Counted from the first letter of the stretch, positions 15,115 to 32,358 are shown. The stretch: 64,000 nucleotides of DNA from Naegleria gruberi (GCA_000004985.1 GG738917.1), one strand, 5' to 3'. Made by a program: numbers and translations. Notes: generated by a model not told the origin, from the letters alone.

Positions 15115-18100
15115 ATGGACTTTGACGACGAATTAGAGTATCAATTTGCTGATACTACTACTGAAGCGAACGATGACGAAGAAGAAGAGAAGGATTTTGA
15201 AAATCTTCAGGATGACTTTAGAGAAGGAGCTAGTGAAGAGCAAATTAGTGAAGAGGAATTACACTTTCAACAAAATATCAAACCACACATTTTAGATACA
15301 ATACGGTTATTGACCAGTTTTATTATTTTCAAAGATGATGAGGAATTATCTTTCGAAGAGAATACTGAAGTCTATGCTGCTAAAAGGAAGGCTTGTATCG
15401 AATCGTTGCAAGACTTACAAGAAATTACAAAGGAGGATTTGACTAAAAGAGAGAGAAGAGTTTGGACACTTTTAATAGAGACAAATATTCACAAGAATGA
15501 ACTCTTTTCACTGCTGTCACACCACAGAAATGACTATGACATTGTGAGAGAGGTAATTGATTTGTTAGTAATTTTGAGTGAGTCTCCAGATCAAAACAAT
15601 CCGAGATTTAGAAAGTTCTCTGCTAGAGGAGGTGCTTCCGAAAGAAAGAGAGCTATTTTCTACTTTGGAAAACAAATGAAAATATTGCAAAGATTCAAAC
15701 AAGCTTTACTGTCGACTAAATACCTTCCAATCATTAGTTGGACATTAATGAATAAGGAAAATGAATCTGCACTCAAATCAAAAATGATAATAGATGAGGA
15801 AAATAAGAGGAGAGTACTTACAGAAGCTGACCTCTACTTTATTGCTATTTTCAAATTGTTAAATAACTTATTATCTATACCAGATGCCAAACATGGCAAA
15901 GTTTTACAAACTGAAGAACTCCAAACAAGAATGCAAGATGTTTTGGTCAAACAATTGCAAAATGACTGTCAATTTTTAGATTACGCTCTCGTTAAAATGA
16001 CCAAATTTATTGAGAACTATAACGAAGTATCGTCGCAATCTGAAATGAAGAGACTCTCAGAATCTTATTTACTTTTTACAAAGTTTGCTACCATGCTTTT
16101 TTGGAATGAATCTGTGAAGGATTTATTTGAAGCATCAAATCCAATAATTCCAAACAGTAATGATATAGTCATGTCACAGAATGAGGAAAATATGGAAATG
16201 GATAACAGTGAGCTGAAAAGATTGCTAAGAAAGGAGAAAATGTACAAGGATCAAGTTAAGTCTTTGATTCTCACAGGCAGACACTCTCGCTTCCAAGGCA
16301 GTCTTTTAGAAAGAGAATCAAATGTCAGTAAGGTTATTAGTAAGAACAAGGATGCTCAAAAGCTCAGTGCACTATTAGAAGAAAATGAAGAATATGATGC
16401 AGAAAAAGAAAATAAGAAGAATGATGTAAAGATACAAAAAACCTTTGTTGTGCAAAATGTAACTCACATGAATACGGCACACATGTATGCAGCTAGTGAC
16501 AATCCATTCCTTGTTGGAGGCGGACAACAAAAAGCCTCGAGTACTGGTGCTAGATTTGGTACCAAGAGATTTAATGTCATGTCAGACAAGATGGAATTGA
16601 GATTTTCTCCATCCTCTCTCGAAACTAGAAAGATCATTAAGAACTTTGCAGATGATTTGTATAGAGGCTGTTTCAATAGTAAGTTTTCTTTAAATATTTA
16701 AAGGTCTTATCCAATAATAATAATATAGCATTGATTCAACTTACTTTGCAAACTATCATCAAACAACAGGAGGATTCCATTGCCATCAACAATGAACTGG
16801 ATCAAAAATCTACTAAGGAAGCACTTGATCATGAAAGCGAAAGAAACTTTTTATTCTTAGGTCAATTCATGCTAGGTTATAACAGATACAAGTACCTGCA
16901 AAAGAAGAAGAGAGAAGAGCAAAGATCAAGTGGAGAAACTGTTGGTTTCGATATTGCTCTTATTTCTACCTTGTTGAAAGAAGGTGTTGTTTCTATGATA
17001 TTCAAGAAGTTGTTGAGTGATTACTTTTACACACAAAATACTTTTAATCTTACATTTGTAATTGGTTTCTTGAGGGAATTGTTTACAACTTTTAGATGGA
17101 TGGGTGATAAGAACTACAGTGGATCTGATGCATCAACATGGGGTAGAATTGTTTCTATTCACTTGCATCACATTCTCTATGACCCAACAAATATGGAGAG
17201 TCTTGTAAGATTAGTGAGAGAGTACAAACCATATCAAAATTCTATCAAGTACCTTTCTCATTTAGTTTTGTTGGTTGACTTGTTTATTACAGTCATTAAT
17301 GAAAATATAAGCATTGAAGCATTCTTTATGAAGTCTAAGAAAGGAGAATCCTCAACCACAGAAGATGAAGAAGAAGAGGAAGAGAACGATTCTGCCAAGC
17401 AAAAGAGATTCGAATTGGATGGTTTTAGAAGAAGATTTGCCAATCCTTCTGTTCTCAAACAGTACATGTATCTTTTCAGGTTTTATGATGTCAATCCTCC
17501 AGAAGTCAACCAATCCATTATCCAAATATTCAAGTACATTATTGAAGAATTGGATATGGAATTCATGATGTTCAGAGCATCATTCTTGAAGCTTTGTTTC
17601 AATATTCTTTCCAACAAGACGTTTATCCATGATTCATTGGGCTCATTTGAAAGAAAGGTCAATGAAGAGGTGATTGACTTTGTTCTATCAATAGTAAAGA
17701 ACTTCTTCAAGAGAGTCGATGAAGATCCATTCACTGTATGTGAAACTTTGCACTGGAGTACAATGGGCGAAGTCAGCTTGCTCAACCACGCTGATTTTGG
17801 TAGATCAGCAACTGAAGGAAGAGCATCAAGACCTGCAGAAGCTGATGATCTTGATGATTTCATCCAAGGTGAGGAAGAAGAGGAAGATGCCTTAGAAGCA
17901 ATTAGAAGAGATGAGGCCAGAGGAGTTGATGAAGAAGAAGAGCTTCCACAAGAAGAAAAGAAGAAGAAGGACAAGAAGAAGAATAAGAAAAAGAAAGACA
18001 AGAAGAAAGATGAAACAGAAGAAAACCAAGCTGAAGAAGGAACAGAAGAAAACCAAGAAGTTAAAAAGAAGAAGAAAGATAAGAAGAAGGATAAGAAGAA

Positions 18101-18407
18101 AAAGGATAAAAAGAAATCCAAAAAGAGAAAGGAAAGAGACGAAGAAGAAACTGAGGAAACTGAAGATACTGAGAGAAGTGAAAAGAAGAAGAAAAAGAAG
18201 AAAAAGAAGGAAAAACAACAACAGGAAGAATCTCTTCAAGAGGAAGAGGAACCACAAGTTGAAGAAGAAATGGCTGATGAAGAGGATCGTCTCTTACTTT
18301 CCAGTGATGATAGTGATGATGAAAAGAGTAGAGGAAGACTGAAGAAAGTTACACAAAAAAGAGTCTTACCAAATTCATTCTTAAATCTCGATTTTGAGGA
18401 TGAATAA
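15115..18407 (+). CDS. Timeless/Tof1/Swi1-family replication-fork-protection protein, 2 exons (15115..16678, 16729..18407), with a long Lys/Glu-rich C-terminal tail
   Basis: Two ORFs joined by a 50-nt intron (GTAAGT ... TATAG) in phase 1. Blocks resemble TIMELESS, for example LTGRHSRFQGSLL versus human RGNRHSRFGGSYI. The gene has an acidic N-terminus and an acidic/basic C-terminal tail ending DDSDDE. Confidence 0.5.
17905..18300 (+). repeat. coding low-complexity (AAG/GAA)n tract encoding a poly-Lys/Glu tail
   Basis: Purine-rich trinucleotide repeats inside the Timeless-like CDS. They generate spurious overlapping ORFs on both strands. Confidence 0.7.
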
Positions 18408-18426: not shown

Positions 18427-20103
18427 TTATGGAGAGCTTTGAATACGATTGACAATGGCTGAAACAAGGGCAGAATTATGAACCTCTGCGCCAATACCCA
18501 ATGACTCTCTATCCTTCAAAATGCAACCACTCTTCTTAATACACAAACCAATAGCTGTTTCCAAGATGGTTCCAGTAGATCTCAAAGAATAGCATGGAGC
18601 AACCTTTTGACAACCATAGTAAAAGTATCTGGTAGCACAAGCAGAGAATATTGCGTTACCTCTAATATCTTGTAAACAATCCAATTGACAGGCAACACAT
18701 GGAGTGTTATCAACACCAGCAAAGGAAGCTCTGTCAGGCATTGGATAATCTGATGGACCAGTAACGTGGAATGAGCTAGGAGCAGAAGAAACCAAACCCT
18801 TTGCAGTGGAAGATAAAGAATTCTTAACTTCGTTGGTAGTTTTCTTTTCTCCTTCACTGGCCTTTTCTTTCAATTCCTTTTTAACTTCTGCAATCTTGGC
18901 AAGTGTGAATTCAGCTTTCAAACCATACTTTTTGTTCTTTAAAGTATTGAAAGCTTTCTTATTGAGAGATTTCAATCCTCTTCCCTTACCACCTTTCTTT
19001 CCTCTTCTGCCACCTCTTCTTCCACCTCTTTTACCACCTTTACCTCTTCTTCCACCCTTTCCTTTACCTCTTTTACCACCTTTTCCACCTCTTCTTCCAC
19101 CTTTGCCTCCTTTCTTTCCACCTTTACCTTTTCCACCTTTTCCTTTACCTCCTTTACCTTTTCCACCTTTTCCACCTTTTCCACCTTTTCCTTTACCTCC
19201 TTTTCCTTTTCCACCTTTACCTCCTTTTCCACCTTTGCCTCCCTTTCTTCCAGAATTTCCACCTTTCTTTCCACCATTTGATTTTCCTCCTCTTTTACCT
19301 CCTTTGGCTCCAACAGAATTTCCACCACCTCTTTTACCACCTTTTCCTCCTCTACCTTGTTGTTTTGATGTGGAACGAGCTGTACGACCACCACTGAGAG
19401 CTCCTCTCTTTCCAGATGGTTTACCACCAGTAGCACCAGCACCAGCACGTGAAGCAGATTTTCCACCTCTTTTACCACCAACACCACGTGAAGCAGATTT
19501 TCCAACAGATCCAGAAGTAGCACCAGTACCAGTACCAGCACCACCACGTGAAGCTCCTTTTCCACCTCCTCTTTTACCACCTCCTCCAGAAGAAGTAGCA
19601 CCACCACGAGATACTGAACCACTTCCTCTTCCAACAGAACTTCTTCCACTACTACCACCACTACTAGCACCTCCTCTTGAACCAGCTGATGATGATGAAG
19701 ATGATCTTCCACCACCACTACTACTAGCTCCTCCACCTCTAGAACCTCCTCCAGAAGATGATCCACCACCTCCTCTGGAACCTCCTCCAGAAGATGCTCC
19801 ACCACCTCGTGATCCACCTCCACCACCAGAAGATGATCCACCACCACCTCTTGAACCTCCACCGCCTCCACCACGTCCTAAAGTGTTGATGTTATCCTCA
19901 ATTAATTCTACATCTTCATCTTCATCAGAAGACAATGTAGCAGCAGCTACTACAACGGTACGTTTTTTTCCTGATGAACTGGTCTTGGCAGGTCCACGAC
20001 ATTGACTTGCTGTGGCATTGACACTTTCACATAGTAAAAAACATTGTATGCTGATAATTGCCAGAATAGCGAAAAGTAAAAGACGAATATTCCACTGTGG
20101 CAT
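18427..20103 (-). CDS. secreted basic Gly/Arg/Lys-repeat protein with conserved C-terminal 8-Cys domain (paralog A)
   Basis: ATG verified. A signal peptide is followed by the motif ATASQCRGP, an acidic stretch, (G3-4[RS])n repeats and GKGGKGGKG-type repeats. A C-terminal domain of about 115 aa has the pattern C-x2-C-x3-C...C...YFYYGCQKVAPCY...C...GC and is shared with the genes at 22143 and 30906. Confidence 0.6.
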   Translation of the reverse strand: MPQWNIRLLLFAILAIISIQCFLLCESVNATASQCRGPAKTSSSGKKRTVVVAAATLSSDEDEDVELIEDNINTLGRGGGGGGSRGGGGSSSGGGGGSRGGGASSGGGSRGGGGSSSGGGSRGGGASSSGGGRSSSSSSAGSRGGASSGGSSGRSSVGRGSGSVSRGGATSSGGGGKRGGGKGASRGGAGTGTGATSGSVGKSASRGVGGKRGGKSASRAGAGATGGKPSGKRGALSGGRTARSTSKQQGRGGKGGKRGGGNSVGAKGGKRGGKSNGGKKGGNSGRKGGKGGKGGKGGKGKGGKGKGGKGGKGGKGKGGKGKGGKGKGGKKGGKGGRRGGKGGKRGKGKGGRRGKGGKRGGRRGGRRGKKGGKGRGLKSLNKKAFNTLKNKKYGLKAEFTLAKIAEVKKELKEKASEGEKKTTNEVKNSLSSTAKGLVSSAPSSFHVTGPSDYPMPDRASFAGVDNTPCVACQLDCLQDIRGNAIFSACATRYFYYGCQKVAPCYSLRSTGTILETAIGLCIKKSGCILKDRESLGIGAEVHNSALVSAIVNRIQSSP

Positions 20104-20459
20104 TTTGTTTTTAATGACTTTTTTGCGTTGCGAGAAGTGAAAGTGTCACTACTCAACATTTGATGTGATTTGAAGCTATTTGTGGCGAACTGGAAAGTTT
20201 CTGGACACATTTCGGGTTGAGTTTATTGGATTGGGAAAGAAGAGGACAATTAAACCAATGTATTTAGTTCAAATATTGTAAAGTTTCGTAATCAATAGTA
20301 AGTAGTATTGAAGTGAAACATTCGAATATTTTGGATTAACTCTCATTGTAAATAGAAACATTGTTTAATATTTCTCATATCGGTATATACTTTTATAAAA
20401 TATTACTCCAATTATGAGATTTGATTTTATTCGAAACATTTCTAATAACTCACAAATAT

Positions 20460-21557
20460 TTAAATTCTTCTTTCAATGGCTGAGGTAATATATTGCATTG
20501 CATTTGAAATTGTTCTATTCACTTGTTCTTCATTTCCAATCGATGGATTCACCTCTACCAAATCCATTCCAACAAATTTCGAATATTTTTGACATTTTCT
20601 ACAAATCTTTAATCCATCCTGATGTGAAATTCCATTCTCCACAGCTGTTCCTGTACTTGGTGTAAATTCTGGATCAATACCATCCACGTCAAAACTCAAA
20701 AATAATGGAAATTCTGATTGATTTAAATTCAAGTGTGAAAAACATTCTTCCAAACAATATTCGATTTCTAATTGATGAATTTCACTTGCAGTAAAGTGTT
20801 GAATTTTGAACTTTTTCAAGATTTCTTGTTCGAAAGAATCGACATCTCGAAGACCCAAGTAAGCCAACCGAGAAGAAACTAGGAGATTGATTTCTTCATT
20901 CATCCATTCGAAACCAATGTGTGAATTTCTTTCCTCTCCCAAAATTGATTGACCACAGAGGAAAGCAAGTGGCATACCATGCATATTCTTACTCATTGAA
21001 TCTGATTGGTGTCAAATAGTTTATCGACAAGTGACAGAGTTGAGAGTTTAAATAAAAACAAGAAACAAACCTTTTGGAGTGTTAATGTCTGCATGAGCAT
21101 CCACCCACAGTACTCTTAAATCTGGATATTCCATTAACATGGCATAAATTGAGCCAATTGCCACAGAATGATCTCCACCAATGTTTACTATAAATGGTTT
21201 CTTATTGGATTGAACTTGGAAAATAGTGTTGATTGTTTCGGCAATTTGTTGATTGAAGGAGCCAACTCTTCTCTGATTGAGACAAATCTCCATATCATCA
21301 GCCTCTTTGTCTACCAATGTTGAAGGACTTTTCGAATAATCTGGACTATTACTATTCGAATCTCTCTTTTCATTAATTTTAATAACTGGCAAGTGATTTA
21401 ACAATTGTGTTTGTAGTAAATGATAAGCTCCCAACTCAACACCCTCTCTTCTCTGACCCAAGCCACACCAACTTTCCAGAATTACAACATTCTCATTGTT
21501 TTCCTCTTGTTGATTTCTCATCATGTTATCAATGATATTCATTAGCTGTGGATGCAT
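20460..21557 (-). CDS. arginase (ureohydrolase family), 2 exons (21071..21557, 20460..21001)
   Basis: Arginase signature blocks are present: GGDHSVAIGS, WVDAHADINTP, the (SM)HGMPLAFL motif and SFDVDGIDP. A 69-nt intron (GTTTGT ... ATCAG) splits the DAHADINTP|K..HGMP region in phase 1. The splice restores the canonical motif spacing. Confidence 0.7.
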
Positions 21558-22142
21558 CTATGATAACTTGTGTATTAATAAGTTTGTTTTTTTTATGTGG
21601 TGAAGAATACGTTAGAACATCCAGTTCTAAACTCTCACTTTAAAAACACATGTTTGGTTGTGTGAATTGCCAATTTAGATGCAACTTATCTTCTATCGAT
21701 TGGAAACATACCTTAACAAGGATCGCCGTTCACATGTTACTGAAATGTGCGTTCAGTTAACATTGTTTTTAACTCAACAACTTGTCAATGTTCTTGTAGT
21801 ATACTCTCAAATTCATTTAAGAAACCTTAGCCGTGTGGGTGGTACTTTACTGATCCATTGCAGATAAGAGTTGAGCTGTAGTAAGTTACGACATTATTTT
21901 CAGTGAATAGGAAAACTTCCACAACAACATCATAAAGAGATGGTAAGAAAAGAAGTGAATTCATTCTAAGGGAAATTACCAATATTTACCATCCAAATAA
22001 ATCATATCCCTCAATAGTCAAACGAAATAAGCCTCATCCAAGTATGAAACTAGATAATAATGAAGAAACTGTTGCAAAAGAAAATATAATATTCATTCAA
22101 ATTCATCTAAAATTATTGCCTATTAAAATAAACATATCAACA

Positions 22143-23336
22143 TTAAGCAGAATTTCTAATCTTTGCAACAATTGCTTGGACTTTTGCATTGCCTGAAGCT
22201 CTTGGATCAATTCCTAAATCAGCATTAGATTTGAAACTACATCCACTCTTTTCCAAACACAATCCAAGTCCAACCTCTGTAATGTAAGCATTTTCTCTGA
22301 GAGTGTAACATGGTGCTACTTGCTGACATCCATAAAAGTAATATTGCTTTGGGCAGTTAGAAAATACAGAGCCAGCAAAACTTTGGAAATATTGCATGCA
22401 ATCCAATTTACATGCAACACATTCAGATTGTTGCTTTCCAAAGAATGAGTTACGATTTGCGTGAGAGGTTGAAGTTGGACCTGTAATATTAAAACGAGAT
22501 GGATTATAGTCAACTGTTCTTCTTGCACCTTCAGAGAGGGAAGACCTACCTGAGGCTGGTGGTGCTGCTTTAACTGCTGGCTTAACTGGGACCTTTGGTT
22601 TGACTACAACTTTTGGTTTAACTACAACCTTTGGTTTGACAGCTGGTTTGACATTCTTGACCTTACTTTTAACCTTACTCTTAGTCTTTGATTTGGCCTT
22701 TGATTTACTCTTGGACTTACTCTTTGATTTACTCTTTGATTTGCTCTTTGATTTACTGGTTGACTTGGACTTGCTCTTTGACTTACTAGCAGACTTGCTC
22801 TTTGATTTACTTGCTGATGACTTACTAGATTTGGATTTACTAGCAGATGACTTTCCTGATTTACCTGATTTACCAGATTTACCAGCTCCCTTACCAGCTC
22901 CTCTTCCAGAACCCTTACCAGCTCCTCCTCTTCCAGAACCTTTTCCACCTCCTCTACCAGCACCTCCTCTTCCAGCAGATCCACCACGAGATCCAGAACC
23001 TCCTCTTCCTGATCCACCTCTACCACCACCTCCACCTCTACCACCAGAGGAACCTCCACGACCTCCTCCACCGCCTCCACCTCTACCTCCACCTCCGCCT
23101 CCAGAGCCACCTCCTTTACCGAGAGTGAAAGCATCTGAAAGGGTTTCTTCCAATAATTCTTCCTCCTCCAAATCATCAGAAAGTGTAGTTACTCCTCTTT
23201 TAGCAGAACTCTTGGCTGTATTATCTGGGCCTCTACATTGACTTGCTGTTCCTTCAACAACAATACTGTTACCCAATAAAAATACCAACACAAGAGTTGT
23301 TATTAGAAATAAACAGACGAAACAACGACTTGACAT
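22143..23336 (-). CDS. secreted basic Gly/Arg/Ser/Lys-repeat protein with conserved C-terminal 8-Cys domain (paralog B)
   Basis: ATG verified. It has a signal peptide, GTASQCRGP, an acidic stretch, (GGGR/GSGR) repeats, and long (KS)n, (SKSK)n and (PKVVVK)n repeats. The C-terminal Cys domain is CVACKLDCMQ...YYFYGCQQVAPCY...GLCLEKSGC. Confidence 0.6.
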   Translation of the reverse strand: MSSRCFVCLFLITTLVLVFLLGNSIVVEGTASQCRGPDNTAKSSAKRGVTTLSDDLEEEELLEETLSDAFTLGKGGGSGGGGGGRGGGGGGGRGGSSGGRGGGGGRGGSGRGGSGSRGGSAGRGGAGRGGGKGSGRGGAGKGSGRGAGKGAGKSGKSGKSGKSSASKSKSSKSSASKSKSKSASKSKSKSKSTSKSKSKSKSKSKSKSKSKSKAKSKTKSKVKSKVKNVKPAVKPKVVVKPKVVVKPKVPVKPAVKAAPPASGRSSLSEGARRTVDYNPSRFNITGPTSTSHANRNSFFGKQQSECVACKLDCMQYFQSFAGSVFSNCPKQYYFYGCQQVAPCYTLRENAYITEVGLGLCLEKSGCSFKSNADLGIDPRASGNAKVQAIVAKIRNSA

Positions 23337-23660
23337 TTTTTCTGATAAAGAGTGTCAGTTTGTTGTTGGAGTACGAGGAAGAGACATGATTGGTATGCAG
23401 TAACACATGAGTTTGATTACAATCATCCTTTCCAGTTACTAATTTTCTTATAGATAGATTATAATGAAGGAAATTGCTAATGTTTGTTCAACACTTTAGA
23501 TAGCAACGAAATTGTGTTGTATTTGAAACAATATTGTTATTGTAATCTTGGTTTGATTTGAGTAAAAGGAAATTTGATTTTGATGCATCTAATTTTCAAC
23601 TAGTCATTCCAAATCTGCACATGTGAAATTGTTGTAAATATTATAGTAGGTGAGGTATTA

Positions 23661-25049
23661 TTAAAACAAATCCTCAATGTCCACATTTTCCCATCCTTTG
23701 AAAAATATTCCCTTCTTATTGACATTTAGCATTTTAGCTTCCCATTCTCTGTATCCTTTGATTGGTGCATCAGCGTTTACAATTTTACTGAATACTTTAA
23801 CTCCATTATTAACATTTTCATAAACTCCTGCCAGTAGTTCTAAATCCTGATCAAATATCATATCAACTGTTTTAGCAAATTTGTTTCGTATGAAAGGAAT
23901 CTTGTTCAGAAAATTCAATATGGAGAGGGAGGAATAGAACTTGAATATTACTTTAACTTCACCTTCTCCTGTTGGAATTAAGCAAAATACTTGTGACATT
24001 CTTGGACCTGATCTTTCATTTGCAATATAGTCAGTGGTGTCCATTCTTACAAAGCAAGGTGGAATGAATGATAACTGAACCATAAATTCTGATTTCAGAC
24101 CTGGAATTTTCTTGAATTCTGGTTTTGTGAATCGATAAGTGAAAGAATCTTGATGAATACTTTGATCGTATTGCATTTCTTTTGGAATGAGTCTTCTCGA
24201 TGGATTGTCTGATGGGATATCTTTAGATATTACGAGTTGGCTTTGAATCTGTGTGGCTTGACTTCTCTTTCCAATAGTTCCATCATGTGTAAAATCCAAA
24301 TGAGCAGGGTCAAGCAAATTCTCCAATACAAACGAGTAATGACAAGGTAGGTCTCTTGTGTTTTCTATTAACACTTCTAGTTTTGAAGAATCATCAGTTA
24401 AAAATTCTTCTCTAAATAATTCCAAAGGTATTTGATTAATATCTGCCTTAACCTTATCATTGGGAAATACCCAAATTAGTCCACAACATTCATGAACTTG
24501 TTTTGCTTGGCACTTGATGGTAGAGCACAATCCTTTCATTCTTTCAGACGAAACTGATGGAATTCTAACACATTGTCCTTCTTTTTCAAACCTCCAACCA
24601 TGATAAGCACATTCCAAGGATCTTTTCCCTTCGAATTCTGTAACTTGTCCTGTAGAAAGTTTGGCAGATCTGTGAGGGCATAAATCTTTCACACAAGTAA
24701 TATTGCCATCACTAGTTCTATACAATGCAAGTGGTTCTCCAAATAGCTTGATTGTTTTTGGTTTAGAATCAGTGATGGAAACATCTTTTGAAAGTGCCAC
24801 TGGATACCAAAACAAGGTCATTTCCAAATTTGTAACATCTGATTTGGTTTTAAATGTATCATTAGGAAATTTCTCAATAATATTCTTTTGTTTAAATATG
24901 AACGAAAAATCCAACCAATCAAATAATCGTAGATAATACTTTGATACTACAACCAATCCTCCCACAACGATAGCACCCAATGCTAGGAGCATGCTGATTG
25001 AATATTCCGATCCTAATACTTTACTTCCTATCTTTACGAGTTGTTGCAT
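23661..25049 (-). CDS. Rieske [2Fe-2S] non-heme-iron oxygenase (Neverland/cholesterol-7-desaturase-like or PaO/CMO-like), N-terminally membrane-anchored
   Basis: The Rieske motif is CPHRSAKLSTGQV...CAYHGWRF. The mononuclear-iron motif is E-x3-D-x2-H-x4-H (ENLLDPAHLDFTHDG). There is an N-terminal TM helix. ATG verified. Confidence 0.7.
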   Translation of the reverse strand: MQQLVKIGSKVLGSEYSISMLLALGAIVVGGLVVVSKYYLRLFDWLDFSFIFKQKNIIEKFPNDTFKTKSDVTNLEMTLFWYPVALSKDVSITDSKPKTIKLFGEPLALYRTSDGNITCVKDLCPHRSAKLSTGQVTEFEGKRSLECAYHGWRFEKEGQCVRIPSVSSERMKGLCSTIKCQAKQVHECCGLIWVFPNDKVKADINQIPLELFREEFLTDDSSKLEVLIENTRDLPCHYSFVLENLLDPAHLDFTHDGTIGKRSQATQIQSQLVISKDIPSDNPSRRLIPKEMQYDQSIHQDSFTYRFTKPEFKKIPGLKSEFMVQLSFIPPCFVRMDTTDYIANERSGPRMSQVFCLIPTGEGEVKVIFKFYSSLSILNFLNKIPFIRNKFAKTVDMIFDQDLELLAGVYENVNNGVKVFSKIVNADAPIKGYREWEAKMLNVNKKGIFFKGWENVDIEDLF

Positions 25050-25437
25050 TTTTTAAAAGAAATTTGATCTTACTTAATCTTGCCTTTACATCATGGCTAA
25101 TTGATCAAGTCGAGTGATAGAAGCTAGGAGGAGATTTAAATTACAACACTAACAAAACGCACTTGAGAAAATCAACAACCAGAAAATATTAGCCTTAAAC
25201 TTTAAGCATTTTTAATCTTAAAAAATATTGATGAAGAGAAGTAAGAAAATGGAAATTCTTCTTACAATTAATTCATAAGAAGTTGATAGGAGAGCTTATT
25301 ATCAATGTCCTTTCAATGTCCACTCAATGTCCACCTAGCTGGAGATGCGAATGATGTCCTCGGTAATGAAATATTAGGAATCCGAAAACCATCATCATAT
25401 TAGACAATTACACTTCATTGAATATTATTTAAACAAA

Positions 25438-26256
25438 ATGACTCAAGGAGAAGAAACATCTGGTTTGAGATTTTTCTCTAGAAACAAAAGCAAAGCTTGG
25501 GCAGAAAAGTTCTTCCTTGCCTATGGCCCTATTTGGATGCTTTACTTTGTCTTTCTGATTTATTATGAAATTTATGAAGGTGCCTCGAAACTTGGTTGGA
25601 CAATGTTTGGTGTCATAATGGCAACTCCTTGTGTTATGTATCCATTGATGTTTCCAGGAAAGGCAGACAGCAAGTTACCAATCACTGAAAGATATTGGTT
25701 TAAGGCTAATCTTTGGATTTTATTTTTCAATTTTGTTGGAAATTATTTCTGGACTCACTACTTTTTCAATCTACTTGGAGCTAGATATACTTTGGAGGCA
25801 TATAGTATCAATGATATTCCTTATTTGATGTTTTTCTGCACCCAAGCTTATTTCACTTTTTATTTCACATTTAGTAATGTTCTATTGAGAATGATTTATA
25901 CTGGAATGAAAGAATCAAGAGGGAGAACTGTCTTTGTTGTATTGTTCCTTTGTGCATTTTGCTATTTCACAGCCTATATGGAAACACTCACAATCCAACA
26001 TTTCAAATATTACACACACAAAAATAGGGATGCAATGTTAAAGTACGGTTCAATTTTCTATGCTCTATACTTTATTGTTGGATTTCCAATGTATTTCAGA
26101 GTGGATGAAGAGGAGAAGGAGAAGAAATTTTCCACATGGAAAGTTGTCACTGAGAGCTTGGCATCATGCATGTTAGTGACTATATTGCTTGACTTTTGGA
26201 GATTGATTATTGGAGGAATCATTCCAGATATTCCTCAATGCAATTGGAAAAATTAA
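25438..26256 (+). CDS. multi-pass membrane protein, cycloeucalenol-cycloisomerase (cyclopropyl sterol isomerase, CPI1)-like
   Basis: 272-aa polytopic membrane protein. Blocks (KANLWILFFNFVGNYFWTHYFF, YFTAYMETLTI, FPMYFRVDE) resemble CPI1 as far as I recall that family. Identified from memory only. ATG verified. Confidence 0.4.
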   Translation: MTQGEETSGLRFFSRNKSKAWAEKFFLAYGPIWMLYFVFLIYYEIYEGASKLGWTMFGVIMATPCVMYPLMFPGKADSKLPITERYWFKANLWILFFNFVGNYFWTHYFFNLLGARYTLEAYSINDIPYLMFFCTQAYFTFYFTFSNVLLRMIYTGMKESRGRTVFVVLFLCAFCYFTAYMETLTIQHFKYYTHKNRDAMLKYGSIFYALYFIVGFPMYFRVDEEEKEKKFSTWKVVTESLASCMLVTILLDFWRLIIGGIIPDIPQCNWKN

Positions 26257-26262
26257 ATAAAT

Positions 26263-27063
26263 TTACAAGTACTTTCTATAATCCTCCTTAGTTCTGTGTA
26301 CCAGCTTTTCCTCAGCTTTACAACTTTTACAAGTCAGAATACACTGTCGTGTCTGGACTGGATCAAACGAAACTGAAATCATGAAATGATCACAATCCAG
26401 TTGTCTCCTTTTTTCATTATCAATTTCTGATCGATGTTCATTATCCATCAAGCCATAGCCCTGCTCAGCTGCTTGAAGAGCTTTCGTTCCCTTTCGTGTG
26501 CTTCTCTTAAAATTATCATATTCTTCCTGGAAAGCATAAATGTACGAAGTGTAAGAGCGGAATTGTTCTCTAAGTTTCATATTTCTATTTGTAAATTTAA
26601 TTCTCCTGTTGAGTAAGGCAAAGTAAAGTTTCTGAAAAACCAAATGTTGTTCTGGTTTCATATCAGATGGAATAAACTTTTTTTGAAATCCAAAAATGTT
26701 TCGTGGATCTTTTAACTGAAACATGTTTTCAATTTCTTTTTCCAAAGTTTTGCCCTCCTTTATGAATAAGGCAGCATGATCCCTTTCTTCCTCTGTGGAA
26801 ATTATTTTACCAAATGTTCTTTCCAATAGATATTTCTGGAAAGGAAGAGAATAAATAATGTTTCTAATTTTTCTATCAATAAGGACATAGACTGTGTAGA
26901 GATCTTTGATTTCAAAATAATTTAGTATCACTATCCATATTTCTTCCAAATGAATTTTGGTAAATATTGTTTCTGTTAAAACTTTAGGTTTCGGTTTCTT
27001 GTTAGATTTCTTAGGGATGGTATTCAACAAGTAGTCTTCGTCTAACAATGCAAATGAAGACAT
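26263..27063 (-). CDS. hypothetical protein with possible N-terminal F-box-like region
   Basis: 266-aa ORF with ATG verified. The N-terminus has a weak F-box-like pattern (IHLEEIWIVILNYFEIKDL). Confidence 0.3.
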   Translation of the reverse strand: MSSFALLDEDYLLNTIPKKSNKKPKPKVLTETIFTKIHLEEIWIVILNYFEIKDLYTVYVLIDRKIRNIIYSLPFQKYLLERTFGKIISTEEERDHAALFIKEGKTLEKEIENMFQLKDPRNIFGFQKKFIPSDMKPEQHLVFQKLYFALLNRRIKFTNRNMKLREQFRSYTSYIYAFQEEYDNFKRSTRKGTKALQAAEQGYGLMDNEHRSEIDNEKRRQLDCDHFMISVSFDPVQTRQCILTCKSCKAEEKLVHRTKEDYRKYL

Positions 27064-27164
27064 TTTTTGATTATCCTAATTTTAAATCTGATCTTGTAAC
27101 TGTGATGATCATCCTCAAAGTGTGAAGTTTCAATTTCAAACAGTCAACTTGCAAAAAGAGCTGT

Positions 27165-27851
27165 TTATTCCACATTACAAAAAGATGTTCCAACAAAAAC
27201 AGCATCAGTATTGGAGAAAGGTTCAAGTGTTAGCAATTCTCTTGGTTTGAAATACTTTTTAACATCGGTGATTGTTTCTTGGGTCCATTCTACAGATTGT
27301 TGAACGTATCCTTCAGGTTTGTGTAGTACAATATAAAAATCTCCACCTTCTTTAAGGAATAATTTGGCATTCTCTGTCATTGCTTTGTGAGTACCATTTG
27401 TCATTATGATGTCCACTTTTTCAGGAATTTCTGATTGATATTCAGATGGATTATTTGCACTTCCACTAATTGCAATAAGATTATTTCTTTGTGATTGCAA
27501 TTTTGCAACAATTTGATAGTCAGATTCAGAACTATTAACACAATAAACTTTTCCACTAGTAGAAATAATATCCGAAATAAAAGATAAGGTAATTGGTGCA
27601 ACATCAATACACAATATCTTTCCTCCTGGTTTGACACTCATAAAGTGCAAACCAGACACAATGCTGGCAGCCAGGCGACAATCCACTCTCCATTTTCTAT
27701 ATTCAGTTCCGTTAATTGTAACGATTTCATCAAAATCAAAAACTTCAGGAATATTTGGTGCATAGTTTACAGTACACAATACATGGAATGGCTCTTCAGG
27801 ACTTGTTGTGATGAACATATTTGGAAATCTGTGTGGTTCAATTGTTGACAT
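27165..27851 (-). CDS. divergent fibrillarin-like SAM-dependent methyltransferase (no GAR domain)
   Basis: It is collinear with the fibrillarin catalytic core: EYRKWRV (cf. EYRVWNP), KPGGKILCIDVAPI (cf. KPGAKVLYLGAASG), VYCVNSS (cf. VYAVEFS), DIIMTNGT, EGGDFYIVLHK, and ELLTLEPFSNTDAVFVG (cf. EQLTLEPYERDHAVVVG). The track ORF extends 5' into the upstream gene in another frame; the first ATG (27851) is used as the start. Confidence 0.5.
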   Translation of the reverse strand: MSTIEPHRFPNMFITTSPEEPFHVLCTVNYAPNIPEVFDFDEIVTINGTEYRKWRVDCRLAASIVSGLHFMSVKPGGKILCIDVAPITLSFISDIISTSGKVYCVNSSESDYQIVAKLQSQRNNLIAISGSANNPSEYQSEIPEKVDIIMTNGTHKAMTENAKLFLKEGGDFYIVLHKPEGYVQQSVEWTQETITDVKKYFKPRELLTLEPFSNTDAVFVGTSFCNVE

Positions 27852-27903
27852 TTTTTTTTGATGATAAATCAACGGAAGGATTGGTTGTTTTGCAATGTTA
27901 CCT

Positions 27904-29367
27904 TCATTGTAAAATGCAATTATTTGTTGAGGATGACAGCAAAGATTGCACTCTCTTGAAGTTTGTGAAATGTTGAAGGTGTTTCTTGTAGGATTCGTAG
28001 TTAGCTTTCTCCTTTTCATACTTTTCAAGTTCTGTGTAGTAATAGGAAGGAGGCCACACATTTGTTTTGATTTCAATCAAATCTTCTTCCTCTAGAGAAT
28101 TCTGAATGAGTGGTAAATAGTTTGCATAATTGTTTGTCATATAGTAGAGGCATAGTTTTCGTAATTGTTTGGCATTGTAAAGTTTAGAAAACAAGTAGAG
28201 AGTTACAATTTCTTCACTGCCATTTTTTGCATTCTCTTCATTGATAGATTTCGATATGAAAACTTCACATTGAGTTTCAAGATGATTCATGTTATATAGG
28301 TGAGCTATGGCTAAAATTGTACACACAGAATTGGAATCAAATACAGGTTGTCTGTGATAGACATGTTGTAGAAAGGCCTCGCATCCTTTGATTTGATCTT
28401 CAATGGAATTAGTTAATTCTTGACCTTCAAATAGATTAATTTCAGTCATGGAAGAAGAGCTCTCAATAAAGCCATCTGTGAACATAACCTTAAAGACATC
28501 ACTGCACACAAATAGAAAACATTTGTTGGCGTATCTGTAGTTATCTCCAATTTTGAATTGAACATCAGCATACTCTTTCTTTCCAAAGAAGTTTGTGTTT
28601 AGTTTCGAATAGAAATCCTGCATAATATTTTCAGATCCCTCATTAAACAAATCACACTTATCGTAAAAGTTTTTCAGAGATGGTGCGTCGAATAAGAGTG
28701 ATAATTCATCAATTCTTCCTTTCAGGAATTTCTTCTCTAGATTAATAGTTTTCCCACAGTAAGTCAATTCTAGTATGGTTATAAATTCTTGTGTTGATAT
28801 AGATTCTACTAGCTCAAGTTTGAAAATTTTCTCCTCATAAAGTATGGTCTTAAATAAAGTGGAGTACTCAGAATAGAGCTCCGGTATTTCTTCTATCTTA
28901 TCGTTTGCAGCAAGATATTTCAATTTAGTGAATAAATTTTCCAATACTTTCGAGCAAGAACAGCTCAGAATAATACTATGAGCATATAGATTTTCTATTT
29001 CATTATTCTCATAATTCATTCCAATAATATGTACATCAGAAAATGCAGAATTATTGAGTAGTGATTGATTATTCTCAAATGAAAATCCAATTCTTTCTAA
29101 CGGTTGAGGTTTTTCTCTTTTCTCTGGTAATCGAGGACATTTCCTCACAGGAGGTGGAAGACAAGTGGAAACAAGGAGTTTCAAAGTGGATACTTTTGTT
29201 TCCTGATACGCTGCATTTATCACTCGATGCATGCACAAAGTTACATTAATATCCAAATCCGAACTTATGAGATAACTTGCACAAACATTATCCTCATTCT
29301 TTTTCACCACATTCATAATATCCTCCTCAATTATTGATCTTTGCAAATCAAAATTTTCATTCATCAT
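27904..29367 (-). CDS. tandem BTB/POZ-domain protein
   Basis: Two BTB-like signatures are present (FSDVHIIGMNYENNEIENLYAHSIILSCSCSKVLENLF and YADVQFKIGDNYRYANKCFLFVCSDVFKVMFTDGF). ATG verified. Confidence 0.45.
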   Translation of the reverse strand: MMNENFDLQRSIIEEDIMNVVKKNEDNVCASYLISSDLDINVTLCMHRVINAAYQETKVSTLKLLVSTCLPPPVRKCPRLPEKREKPQPLERIGFSFENNQSLLNNSAFSDVHIIGMNYENNEIENLYAHSIILSCSCSKVLENLFTKLKYLAANDKIEEIPELYSEYSTLFKTILYEEKIFKLELVESISTQEFITILELTYCGKTINLEKKFLKGRIDELSLLFDAPSLKNFYDKCDLFNEGSENIMQDFYSKLNTNFFGKKEYADVQFKIGDNYRYANKCFLFVCSDVFKVMFTDGFIESSSSMTEINLFEGQELTNSIEDQIKGCEAFLQHVYHRQPVFDSNSVCTILAIAHLYNMNHLETQCEVFISKSINEENAKNGSEEIVTLYLFSKLYNAKQLRKLCLYYMTNNYANYLPLIQNSLEEEDLIEIKTNVWPPSYYYTELEKYEKEKANYESYKKHLQHFTNFKRVQSLLSSSTNNCILQ

Positions 29368-30222
29368 TAAATCACATTTTGTACAAACTAATACTATTTT
29401 CTATAAATTTGTGGATTCAAATATTGCAAAAATACCTACACATGAACTATCAGATTTTAAACAATTGGGAATCCAAATTTTATCCACATTCTCCAATGTT
29501 TTCGGTTGATCAATTGCAAATCTTTCAATTCATGAATAATTGCAACTTGACGTTAAACTTACAATATTAAAATTACATCACAATCAAATTTATCATCAAT
29601 TGTACCAATCTATTCAAATTTAATTTCAAATTTAATTCAAAATATTAAATCACACCTACATGAAAACTAAGGAGATACGATTGATCACCAGATCTGAAAC
29701 TTGTTACTCCTGTACTAATTTCATCATTATTCCTAATTAATTTGTTCCGATCGTCAATACTACCAACAGAATGCTTACCCTCTTTTATTGGTTACACATC
29801 GTAGGAGAGATTGTTTTCCAACGCCTTCATCTCCTAAAATTTTGACTTTCAGAATAAGTGATGCCATTTTTTATAAATTATAAATTAAATAAATTTTAAC
29901 GGCAAGTATTGATCCAAACTTTACAAAAAAAAATGACACGAAGAGGATGTCGTCTCACTTGTTCTAATCGATTTTATTACATCACGATGATCATCTAAAT
30001 AATTCACCACTCATTAAACAAGATCCGAAAACAAAAGACTTCATTTTCCTATCGATTTGAAAATAGTGCTTTTTATTTCAGTGCCGTAAAATGATGATAT
30101 TAAAATTTCCAATCGATACAATTGTTTGATTGGTATAACATCAGACTCGGTTTATATTTTTGATAAAAAGACAAAAGAAGTGATCAATTCGTTTGCTTTT
30201 GGAGGAGTTTTGGTGATGAGTA

Positions 30223-30867
30223 TTGATGATGAATGAGCATGATGAAATATATGTTATTTCAGATCGAGCAAATGAACATTCCTACAGTGTTGAAAAGTTT
30301 AAATTGGGAGAATTTATTAGAAACAAGAATGCTCCAGCTGTTAAACCAGTTTGGATTACATCAGATACATGTTCTAATACGTATGGAAGTGTAGTATTTA
30401 ATGGTGTGAACACTAGATATTTAATTATTCTTGACAATTTTGAAAGTAATTTAAAAATATTTGATTATGAGACTGGATCTTTGATTAATAATACAATTTT
30501 TTCAGTTTATCCATATGCTTATTCATTAGGAAAGATTTCAAACAAGGAAATAGTTGTTGGATGCTCTAAGGTTTATTGAAATTTATGAAATCGATGAGAA
30601 TTCATTTGGATTAGACAAACAAGCACTCAAGTTGATCATTTCTAAACCCATTACAGATTATCCAGAATTTTTTTCTATAACACAATGAATCGAAAGATTA
30701 TTTTTTCAAATGTGTACGACAGTTCTATAACAGTTTGGAGTCAGGATAAATTAGAGCTAGTCCATCAGCATCAAGAACACCTTGATGGTATTTCAGGAAC
30801 GTGTTTGGATGTAAATACAGGAGAGCTCTTTGTTTGTTTTTCTAAGGGGGTTAGCATATTCAAGTAG
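30223..30867 (+). CDS. possible WD-repeat/beta-propeller-like protein fragment, multi-exon (approx 30223..30573 + 30705..30867; 5' exons probably upstream of 30223)
   Basis: Two ORFs can be joined in frame by a putative intron (...VVGCSK | IIFSNVYDSSITVWSQDK...). Segments resemble WD repeats (SITVWSQD, SVYIFDKKTKEV upstream). The track start is TTG. The model is tentative. Confidence 0.25.
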
Positions 30868-30905
30868 AGTGATTATTTTCCAATTTGGATAAGCATTCAA
30901 ATTTA

Positions 30906-32123
30906 TTATCCAGCCCTTATAGCTCCAACCATGGTTGATAAGATCTTTTGAGCTGATGCCCTCTTACTCAAATTCAGTTTCTTTCTATCAACAGTACATC
31001 TATTCTTTGTAATACACATTGCAATAGCAACTTGGATGATATTATCTGAGGCAGTTCTTTCATAACATGGAGCTTTTTGTTGACATCCATAATAATAATA
31101 TTGCTGTCCGCATGTGGAGAAGATAGATGAGAATCCACCAAATGGTTGAGTACAATCAATCTTACAAGCAACACAAGTATTACGTTCAGAACCAGTGAAT
31201 AATGATCTTTCTCCTTGATCATCACTTGAAGGACCAGTCATATCAAAAAAGCTTGGATTTTGAGCTGCAATTTGCTTGGCAAGAGTATCAATTGCATTAT
31301 ATGTGATGTGTGTATCCTTTCCTCCATTGCCATTTGCCACAGCAGTTGGTACAGGTTTTACAACAACTGTTGGTGGAGCTACAACAGCAGCAACGGTTAC
31401 CTTTTTAACATTGTTAACCAATGGATCTCTGGTTACCTTGGTAGTTTTGGCTTTAGCCTTACTCTTTGATTTACTCTTTGATTTACTCTTACTCTTGGAC
31501 TTTCCTTTAGATTTTCCTTTAGATTTTCCTTTAGATTTACCTTTAGACTTTCCTTTAGATTTACCCTTTGAAGACTTTCCTTTGGATTTACCTTTGGATT
31601 TTCCAGAAGATTTACCCTTAGATTTACCAGATGACTTTCCTCTTGAACCCTTGCTGCCACCTTTGGAGCCACCTTTACTGCCTCTAGAACCACCTCTGGA
31701 TCCACCTTTACTGCCTCTTGAGCCACCTTTGCTTCCTCTGCTTCCACCTCTAGAACCTCCACTTCTGCTTCCTCTGGATCCTCCTCTTGAACCTCCACTT
31801 CTAGAACCACCTCTTGAGCCACCTCTGCCTCCTCCTCCACGGCCACCACCACGGCCTCCTCCACCTCTGCCTCCACCACCACGACCACCTCCACCTCCTC
31901 TACCTCCAAGAGTGGTTGCTGCATGTGTTGCTCTTTCATAATTTTCCAAATCTTCCTCATCCAAATCGTGTCCAAGAACGAGTGTAGTTCTGGTTTTACT
32001 TGATGAGGCAGTACTGGCTGGTCCTCTGCATTGACTGGCTGTGGCATCAACATAGATAACCATGGCCAACAAGGCAACCAAACCAAACAATACGCTGATT
32101 CTTACACCTCTGTTAAATAACAT
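30906..32123 (-). CDS. secreted basic Gly/Arg/Ser/Lys-repeat protein with conserved C-terminal 8-Cys domain (paralog C)
   Basis: The track start is GTG; the first ATG is at 32123 and gives a clean signal peptide (MLFNRGVRISVLFGLVALLAMVIYVDA). It has TASQCRGP, an acidic stretch, (RGGGG)n, (GSRGGS)n and (KSKGKS)n repeats. The C-terminal Cys domain is CVACKIDCTQ...YYYYGCQQKAPCY...AMCITKNRC. Confidence 0.6.
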   Translation of the reverse strand: MLFNRGVRISVLFGLVALLAMVIYVDATASQCRGPASTASSSKTRTTLVLGHDLDEEDLENYERATHAATTLGGRGGGGGRGGGGRGGGGRGGGRGGGGRGGSRGGSRSGGSRGGSRGSRSGGSRGGSRGSKGGSRGSKGGSRGGSRGSKGGSKGGSKGSRGKSSGKSKGKSSGKSKGKSKGKSSKGKSKGKSKGKSKGKSKGKSKGKSKSKSKSKSKSKSKAKAKTTKVTRDPLVNNVKKVTVAAVVAPPTVVVKPVPTAVANGNGGKDTHITYNAIDTLAKQIAAQNPSFFDMTGPSSDDQGERSLFTGSERNTCVACKIDCTQPFGGFSSIFSTCGQQYYYYGCQQKAPCYERTASDNIIQVAIAMCITKNRCTVDRKKLNLSKRASAQKILSTMVGAIRAG

Positions 32124-32358
32124 TTTTTTAAAGATACACACTCATAATTTTACAGAACTGATACATTTCTCACTATCAACCTTCCAAATTAAGTATGATG
32201 TGAGTACGGTAGTGGAACACTTTCTGGATATTTGAAGTTTTCAATCGAGTCAGCATGGAATAGGAACAAATAAACAGCACTTATGTGGCATGATAAAAGA
32301 ATTTGGGTATTAATTCAGTTAGCTATCAAGAGATTTGTAAAATAATTTATCTGAAAAA

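Follow-up and report, generated by a model that had tools for sequence, protein, structure and literature searches.

What does a protein do when much of its chain is an extremely basic, low-complexity repeat, and is the repeat the part that matters? The question is raised by three open reading frames (ORFs), referred to below as genes A, B, and C, on the minus strand of a 64,000-nucleotide stretch of Naegleria gruberi DNA (GCA_000004985.1, GG738917.1), the whole of which is called the window. An initial annotation, made from the sequence without database searches, had proposed that these ORFs encode secreted, repeat-containing paralogs. The follow-up analysis described here shows that they belong to a protein family that is limited neither to this locus nor to N. 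gruberi, and that the repeat core is a variable cassette placed at a fixed insertion point, not the element that defines the family. The conserved parts are a predicted signal peptide, a single Cys that is the fifth residue of the predicted mature chain, and a Cys-rich domain whose fold may be new.

All three minus-strand ORFs (18427-20103, 22143-23336, and 30906-32123) were recovered in the ORF list exactly where the initial annotation had placed them, and a six-frame motif scan found exactly three copies of the family in the window. The full-length alignment agrees with the single architecture that had been proposed for them, namely, a hydrophobic N terminus, the motif TASQCRGP, which is identical in all three, an acidic stretch extending to TLG, repeats, a spacer, and an 8-Cys domain. 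The acidic stretch, with its TLG end, is present in each copy as had been described (TLGRGGGG in A, TLGKGGGS in B, and TLGGRGGGG in C; isoelectric point [pI] 4.1-5.0). The core begins with Gly/Arg/Ser repeats and continues with Lys-rich repeats of a different type in each copy, another feature that the initial annotation had read correctly, and its net charge is +83 in A, +50 in B, and +56 in C (overall +50 to +84), with a pI of 12. Although the frame of gene C remains open as far upstream as a GTG at 32141, the plausible start is the ATG at 32123, which follows TTTAAAAAA and has an A-rich leader as in A and B. The elements of the three genes are as follows.

18427-20103, minus strand: gene A, 558 aa, from the ORF list and alignment; stop codon at 18427-18429
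20014-20103, minus strand: predicted signal peptide of A, aa 1-30, ...ESVNA|TASQC, from the hydropathy of the hydrophobic (h-) region and the -3/-1 rule
19990-20013, minus strand: N-terminal motif TASQCRGP of A with the family-invariant Cys at mature position 5, from the motif scan and alignment
19876-19989, minus strand: acidic stretch of A to NINTLG, pI 4.5
18880-19875, minus strand: polycationic low-complexity core of A, net charge about +83, 43% Gly, in the order (GGGS/R)n, GKGGKGGKG repeats, Lys-rich helical spacer
18430-18837, minus strand: C-terminal 8-Cys alpha/beta domain of A, 136 aa, from alignments and an AlphaFold2 model (predicted local distance difference test score [pLDDT] 90.9)
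22143-23336, minus strand: gene B, 397 aa, from the ORF list and alignment
23250-23336, minus strand: predicted signal peptide of B, aa 1-29, ...IVVEG|TASQC, from hydropathy and the -3/-1 rule
23226-23249, minus strand: N-terminal motif TASQCRGP of B, from the motif scan
23118-23225, minus strand: acidic stretch of B to DAFTLG, pI 4.1, net charge -6
22602-23117, minus strand: polycationic core of B, net charge +50, (G3-7R)n followed by GKS/(SK)n repeats
about 22600-22640, minus strand: PKVVVK repeats of B, just downstream of the core
22146-22550, minus strand: C-terminal 8-Cys domain of B, from alignments and AlphaFold2
30906-32123, minus strand: gene C, 405 aa from the ATG at 32123, from the ORF list
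32043-32123, minus strand: predicted signal peptide of C, aa 1-27, ...IYVDA|TASQC, from hydropathy and the -3/-1 rule
32019-32042, minus strand: N-terminal motif TASQCRGP of C, from the motif scan
31905-32018, minus strand: acidic stretch of C to AATTLG, pI 5.0
31356-31904, minus strand: polycationic core of C, net charge +56, (GGGGR)n, (GSRGGS)n, (KSKGKS)n, and (SK)n
30909-31310, minus strand: C-terminal 8-Cys domain of C, from alignments

The likeness among the three proteins is far above chance because BLASTP gave E = 5e-23 with 37% identity for the Cys domains of A and C and E = 2e-8 for the N termini of A and B. At pS 0.67-0.79, the synonymous sites of the Cys domain have reached saturation, and the ratio of nonsynonymous to synonymous substitution (dN/dS) is about 0.4, which indicates that A, B, and C are old paralogs under purifying selection and neither recent duplicates nor repeat artifacts. 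The paralogy inferred in the initial annotation, with conserved ends and rapidly diverging repeat cores, is therefore borne out by the alignment, BLASTP, and dN/dS. The nucleotide core CATTGACTTGCTGT, for which about 0.05 matches are expected by chance, had been reported at all three N-terminal motifs; it is exact in A and B, and gene C departs from it by one mismatch (CATTGACTGGCTGT). The upstream regions of the three genes share no motif of at least 8 nt, and sequence therefore offers no hint of their co-regulation.

A profile of the three Cys domains was searched exhaustively against 1.84 billion cluster representatives, and 35 representatives of the family were found at E < 1e-3, 22 of them at E < 1e-10. 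A word-indexed homolog search was insensitive, returning 1 and 3 matches versus 35, and no absence was concluded from it. When 20 of the 35 profile matches were looked up, every named source was a heterolobosean (genera Naegleria, Willaertia, and Acrasis) and the rest were environmental assemblies. The members from Naegleria fowleri are FDP41_002008 and its neighbor, FDP41_000343, FDP41_000344, and FDP41_008784; those from N. gruberi are NAEGRDRAFT_59834, 63246, 50935, 73150, and 71995; and further sources are Naegleria lovaniensis, Willaertia magna, and Acrasis kona. All of them are annotated as hypothetical or predicted proteins, except for one evidently spurious “hisA” label.

Comparison across this family reveals how the repeat core behaves. 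In A, B, and C, the cassette is a Gly/Arg/Lys/Ser polycation of 170-330 residues that is predicted to be disordered and is encoded by tandem DNA arrays with periods of 9-75 nt; in the AlphaFold2 model of mature B, residues 12-171 accordingly show pLDDT values below 50. Across the family, however, the cationic segment takes three states: a Gly-rich disordered polycation (A, B, C, FDP41_002008, NAEGRDRAFT_71995, and FDP41_008784), an amphipathic Arg/Lys helix, such as FRRFRRFFRRVGRVFRRI, with a hydrophobic moment of up to 1.19, or nothing at all (family sequences P0003, P0004, P0007, and P0010, the Acrasis proteins, and the N. fowleri neighbor of FDP41_002008 at L002:9004-9756). The segment starts right after a conserved T(L/Q) in 10 of the 11 insert-bearing members, and an acidic stretch (net charge -4 to -12) lies directly before the cationic segment (+12 to +84) in every insert-bearing member. 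The cassette cannot define the family because it is absent from several paralogs and orthologs and swapped for amphipathic helices in others, and since several members have no cationic insert, we infer that the core function resides in the Cys domain rather than in the polycation.

The Cys domain comprises about 135 aa, and the alignment of A, B, and C confirmed the eight conserved cysteines noted initially (C47, C50, C54, C67, C76, C82, C99, and C105 in domain numbering), together with the block (Y/F)(Y/F)(Y/F)YGCQ..APCY. The family pattern TGP...C-x2-C-x3-C...C...YYYGC-x5-C...C-x5-C occurs in A, B, and C, and C50, C54, C67, Y74, C82, C99, and C105 are invariant across the family. In an Acrasis-type subgroup, C47 and C76 are both lost while the other six domain cysteines are kept, and because the two disappear together, the alignment speaks for a disulfide between C47 and C76 and for disulfide bonding, rather than metal binding, in the domain as a whole. 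AlphaFold2, supplied with a 29-sequence alignment, modeled the domain as an alpha/beta fold (pLDDT 90.9; predicted template modeling score 0.84) consisting of two short N-terminal helices, five strands, one long helix, and a C-terminal helix.

The initial annotation had been unable to place this domain in any family and had called it possibly a new extracellular module, a suggestion that stands after the database and fold comparisons. Foldseek searches with the model found no match in the PDB (best E = 3.1, TM score below 0.25) or in a viral fold library (best E = 0.87), the sequence profile found nothing in the PDB (best E = 1.3), and Pfam searches with the full proteins and 29 domain sequences gave only sub-threshold hits to Pox_E10, DDHD, CIS_TMP, and WSC. 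Judged against solved structures and the viral library, the modeled fold is thus without a known relative and may be new. Two candidates were considered and rejected. Pox_E10, which would suggest an Erv1/ALR sulfhydryl oxidase, was hit by only 1 of 29 members, at 15-18 bits where the cut-off is 27, and the model is not the helical FAD-binding bundle with a CxxC that marks those enzymes; a relationship to saposin-like proteins such as naegleriapores and amoebapores, an idea based on the CxxC...Cx5C spacing, does not fit because those are all-alpha, five-helix proteins with 6 Cys in three disulfides and the model is alpha/beta. A different architecture is seen in P0023 and P0025 (A. kona AKO1_005987 and a relative), where a 6-Cys domain lies near the N terminus and is followed by about 350 aa of coiled-coil-like sequence.

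The secretion proposed initially for A, B, and C appears likely. Their h-regions have a mean Kyte-Doolittle hydropathy above 3, and the residues at -3/-1 directly before TASQCRGP are V.A in A, V.G in B, and V.A in C (VNA|TASQC, VEG|TASQC, and VDA|TASQC, respectively). In every member with a complete N terminus, a predicted signal-peptidase site, usually V-x-A/S/G, is located 4 residues before the Cys, and A, B, and C all carry the combination that marks membership in the family, a predicted signal peptide and a Cys 5 residues past the cleavage site. In a published Phobius table (PMC11589745, Supplementary Data 1), a signal peptide and no transmembrane segment are given for AKO1_005987 and for N. 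gruberi 50935, 59834, 63246, and 71995; three scaffold-73 gene models, numbered in a way that matches A, B, and C, received the same prediction.

Cys5 of the predicted mature chain is invariant in all 23 aligned sequences. The number of cysteines in the mature protein is nine in 18 of the 23 and odd in 20; in two members with an even number, the additional Cys residues lie in helix 1 of the domain at positions one helical turn apart. Because of this extra Cys, and because the AlphaFold2 model of mature B gives pLDDT 72 for residues 1-10 versus values below 50 for residues 12-171, there is a weak hint that the N-terminal peptide may lie against the Cys domain. Acylation of the N-terminal Cys in the manner of Hedgehog was rejected, as the Cys is 5 residues after the predicted cleavage site and not at the site itself. 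KR or RR occurs at mature positions 14-18 in 10 of the 23 sequences.

The locus itself can be traced in N. fowleri, where two family genes stand in tandem immediately upstream of TIMELESS, the gene that abuts gene A in the window.

15115-18407, plus strand: TIMELESS homolog (Pfam TIMELESS), convergent with gene A and the synteny anchor to N. fowleri

The TIMELESS protein of the window is 64-72% identical to that adjoining FDP41_002008 in N. fowleri, and the two loci are therefore orthologous, with differences in copy number and orientation. The repeat order of FDP41_002008 (Gly/Arg, Lys/Ser, and then P/V/K) is that of B and C, and its neighbor has no cationic repeat. A second N. fowleri tandem pair is formed by FDP41_000343 and FDP41_000344 (L003:10001-12555; VFQX01000002.1). 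The inserts of these two proteins consist of amphipathic Arg-rich helices repeated in long arrays, (LGRRLRR)n and FRRFRRFFRRVGRVFRRIGRF, and follow strongly acidic stretches; both are good candidates for assays of antimicrobial activity.

The exact ORF products of A, B, and C were found neither in a collection of 15 billion proteins nor in a gene-position index, and the publicly available gene models are probably not identical to the plain ORFs. The three scaffold-73 models predicted to have a signal peptide and no transmembrane segment are estExt_fgeneshNG_pg.C_730035 (JGI 81896), fgeneshNG_pg.scaffold_73000037 (JGI 74736), and fgeneshNG_pg.scaffold_73000043 (JGI 74742) (PMC11589745, Supplementary Data 1). 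The genes lying between A and C are an arginase, a Rieske oxygenase gene, two unknowns, a fibrillarin-like gene, and a BTB gene, and because their count fits the numbering of the models, #35, #37, and #43 are taken from gene order, not from sequence, as the public versions of A, B, and C. No mention of JGI 81896, 74736, or 74742 was found in the literature. The sequences are thus already public as hypothetical proteins, and no published description of the family or the domain was found.

What, then, might these proteins do? The reading that we tentatively prefer, by analogy, is that A, B, and C act as extracellular binding or cross-linking proteins or as a coat, most likely in the cyst wall or another secreted matrix, because the conserved element is a Cys module, because members exist with and without a low-complexity part, and because the overall design recalls that of the Leo and Jacob lectins. 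The protein would enter the secretory pathway, and its C-terminal domain would fold with four disulfides, of which C47-C76 is backed by the joint loss in one subgroup. Specific binding or anchoring might be the task of the domain, whose conserved aromatic strip (Y/F)(Y/F)(Y/F)YG possibly contacts a glycan, while the odd ninth Cys, Cys5, might be free for an intermolecular disulfide and the polycationic tail might bind polyanionic polymers multivalently. A binding domain, links through Cys5, and a polycation would together make an extracellular cross-linker or coat. Both the use of the aromatic strip as a binding surface and the map of four disulfides are predictions from the sequence.

Leo proteins of Acanthamoeba castellanii are cyst-wall lectins with 8-Cys “four-disulfide-knot” domains, with or without a Thr/Lys/His-rich basic spacer; their localization in the wall and glycan binding have been demonstrated, a linear array of three aromatics binds cellulose, and Leo is reported to be unique to Acanthamoeba (PMC6541295). 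Jacob lectins of the Entamoeba cyst wall have 6-Cys domains, with or without Ser/Thr-rich spacers (PMC11423589). The Naegleria family shares with both a signal peptide (predicted in its case), a lineage-restricted Cys-rich module, conserved aromatics, and organization as a multigene family in which some members have a long low-complexity, sometimes basic, spacer and others have none; with Leo, it also shares the number of 8 Cys per module, and its aromatic strip is reminiscent of the cellulose-binding aromatic arrays of Leo and Luke. In contrast, no relationship in sequence to either lectin was detected; Leo has two domains per protein and A, B, and C have one; the Leo and Jacob domains are knots of short loops, whereas the Naegleria domain is predicted to be a regular alpha/beta domain of about 135 aa; and the conserved N-terminal Cys peptide is an addition of the Naegleria family. 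The family is therefore set apart from Leo, having a single domain and named profile matches that are all heterolobosean, a distinction drawn without a direct comparison with Leo sequences. Other comparisons are more distant. Plant glycine-rich cell-wall proteins have a signal peptide followed by (GGX)n-type low complexity, and Giardia CWP2 is a Cys-rich wall protein with a strongly basic tail. Neither group is homologous to A, B, and C, as the former has no Cys domain or Lys/Ser blocks and the Giardia CWPs are leucine-rich-repeat proteins. Diatom silaffins are likewise secreted, Lys/Ser-rich, polycationic, and of low complexity, but they are defined by polyamine and phosphate modification and by silica precipitation and have no Cys domain; because Naegleria, to our knowledge, makes no mineralized (silica) structure, that analogy is one of composition only. 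A, B, and C thus resemble the Leo and Jacob lectins in design, in that a secreted Cys-rich module specific to one lineage is combined with a low-complexity spacer, the cationic cassette being the unusual part.

Several observations speak against placing the proteins in the cyst wall. The apparent model of A carries the prefix “estExt”, which implies support from expressed sequence tags, probably from non-cyst cells, and would weaken a role confined to cysts. Searches with eleven locus tags and three protein accessions, and of the literature on the Naegleria cyst wall, encystment, and secretome, found no mention of a family member, none is listed in the supplement of an N. fowleri cyst RNA-seq study, and no expression, localization, or binding data for any member were found in the literature. 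In addition, the extreme amphipathic Arg/Lys helices of the paralogs (hydrophobic moment up to 1.19), placed behind an acidic stretch, look more like an antimicrobial precursor than a wall spacer.

That last observation leads to the main rival explanation, which we regard as doubtful, namely, that the proteins are antimicrobial or prey-handling effectors, in which a conserved scaffold carries a hypervariable cationic effector and the acidic stretch masks the polycation during transport, following the logic of acidic propiece plus cationic peptide in the precursors of frog-skin peptides, defensins, and cathelicidins. The cationic segment, secreted or phagosomal, would bind or permeabilize bacteria; the amphipathic-helix versions would lyse membranes, and the Gly/Arg/Lys/Ser versions found in A, B, and C would agglutinate prey and bind lipopolysaccharide, teichoic acids, or nucleic acids in the manner of protamine, histones, or polylysine. 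All the host organisms are bacterivores. The invariable succession of acidic and cationic segments in insert-bearing members is what such a precursor would have, and amphipathic cationic helices are found in paralogs of W. magna (such as ABK040_001764), N. fowleri, and N. gruberi (FRRFRRFFRRVGRVFRRIGRF, (LGRRLRR)n, and KKLGKKIKKGVKKIGKGIKK; hydrophobic moment 0.8-1.19). Processing could occur at the fixed T(L/Q) insertion point of 10 of 11 members, KR or RR is present at positions 14-18 in 10 of 23 sequences, and an arms race would give the same hypervariable cationic part and genes in tandem. Compared with cathelicidin, defensin, and frog-skin precursors, the family similarly combines a Cys-containing scaffold with a cationic segment that ranges from Gly/Arg-rich to amphipathic-helical, an adjacent acidic stretch, a predicted signal peptide, and tandem gene duplication, so that its evolutionary pattern resembles that of cathelicidin-type precursors. 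The order is reversed, however, with the cationic part N-terminal to the conserved domain; several members without a cationic segment keep the acidic stretch and the Cys domain, which means that the cation is not a conserved effector; and the cores of A, B, and C, at 170-330 residues nearly devoid of hydrophobic residues and non-amphipathic, are unlike known lytic peptides. Processing of the cationic segment is only putative, and Foldseek against the PDB gave no fold homology to cathelin, saposin, or defensin. Membership among the cathelicidins themselves was rejected, since there was no cystatin-fold match and no Pfam cathelicidin match and the domain order is reversed. A broader version of the same idea, which we consider unlikely, is that the 8-Cys domain is a new disulfide-rich extracellular fold, known so far only from Heterolobosea, that would serve as the constant scaffold of an innate-defense or surface-coating system, with the hypervariable cationic cassette after “TL” as the effector and the upstream acidic stretch as its mask, and with diversification of the cassette into the disordered polycations of A, B, and C and the antimicrobial-type amphipathic helices of paralogs; a cathelicidin-like design would then have arisen independently in an excavate amoeba.

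The remaining explanations fare less well. An adhesive or coacervate glue, in which the secreted polycations would fasten trophozoites or cysts to mineral or organic surfaces of negative charge, like the Lys/Gly-rich cement proteins of mussels, barnacles, and sandcastle worms, would suit the extreme positive charge, the Gly/Lys/Ser composition, the predicted disorder, the secretion signal, and an unpaired Cys open to disulfide curing. It is nevertheless improbable, as the likeness is compositional only, the core has none of the Tyr-rich repeats of the 3,4-dihydroxyphenylalanine (DOPA) type, and what the family conserves is the Cys domain, the polycation being absent from several members. Very improbable is an intracellular nucleic-acid-binding protein of the RGG type, in which the Cys domain would bind zinc and the hydrophobic N terminus would not be a signal peptide. 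RGG/GAR-like repeats in A, B, and C and a CxxC in the domain might invite that reading, and RGG/GAR-box RNA-binding proteins were considered as a class and rejected, in keeping with the doubt already voiced in the initial annotation: the N terminus fits a signal peptide in all members and Phobius predicts one in homologs, many members have no RGG at all, and Pfam detected no RRM, KH, or other RNA-binding domain. The loss of C47 and C76 as a pair while the domain persists is, moreover, better explained by disulfides than by tetrahedral metal sites. Finally, long antisense and frame-shifted ORFs cross the repeats and might suggest that A, B, and C are themselves spurious products of low-complexity tandem repeats, but this idea has already been refuted by the conservation data, as the non-repetitive ends are conserved across genera (E = 1e-25 to 1e-36), dN/dS is about 0.4, AlphaFold2 gives a confident fold, and synteny is kept in N. 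fowleri.

The antisense and out-of-frame ORFs through the repeat cores are 184-399 aa long and abound in Pro/Leu/Phe or Val/Glu; they are not genes but a consequence of the GGN/AAR/TCN composition of the repeats.

18806-20005, plus strand, and 18972-19874, minus strand: by-product ORFs at the core of A
22600-23241, plus strand, and 22622-23176, minus strand: by-product ORFs at the core of B
31276-31941, plus strand, and 31433-32086, minus strand: by-product ORFs at the core of C

The window has a GC content of 33%, its genes have short introns, and the neighbors of A, B, and C (TIMELESS, arginase, Rieske oxygenase, fibrillarin-like, BTB, and ThrE) are housekeeping genes that give them no functional context. 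The TIMELESS homolog is split into ORFs at 15115-16701 and 16731-18407 (plus strand), probably by a short intron, and ends in a Lys/Glu-rich tail with tandem repeats at 18044-18230; its stop codon is only 20 nt from that of gene A on the opposite strand. The arginase gene (20460-21557, minus strand) is interrupted by one intron of about 50 nt, which divides it into exons 21048-21557 and 20460-20996. The ORF for a Rieske/PaO-type oxygenase (23661-25049, minus strand) is 100% identical to NAEGRDRAFT_53656 (fgeneshHS_pg.scaffold_73000028), which identifies the window as N. gruberi scaffold 73, in agreement with its GC content and short introns. The closest relatives of this protein after the heterolobosean orthologs are proteins of bdelloid rotifers (Rotaria and Adineta) and environmental “phenylpropionate dioxygenase-like” sequences at 33-39% identity, a patchy distribution that could reflect horizontal transfer. 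The fibrillarin-family ORF (27165-28076, minus strand; Pfam Fibrillarin E = 1.6e-31) has no N-terminal Gly/Arg-rich domain of the usual kind and overlaps the end of the BTB ORF (27904-29367, minus strand). Its location inside a cluster of RGG-repeat genes is probably a coincidence.

Next to nothing is known at the molecular level about the material that Naegleria secretes for building its cyst wall or handling bacteria, and the brain-eating pathogen N. fowleri has clear orthologs of this family. If the proteins are indeed lineage-restricted, abundant, secreted, and of a unique fold, they would be candidates for a diagnostic or a cyst-wall target, for which Jonah, Luke, and Leo of Acanthamoeba provide a precedent. 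The domain would also add a new disulfide-rich extracellular fold, provided that the AlphaFold database likewise holds no relatives. The switch at a fixed site among a disordered polycation, an amphipathic helix, and nothing at all is, furthermore, a natural experiment in the evolution of low-complexity cationic regions.

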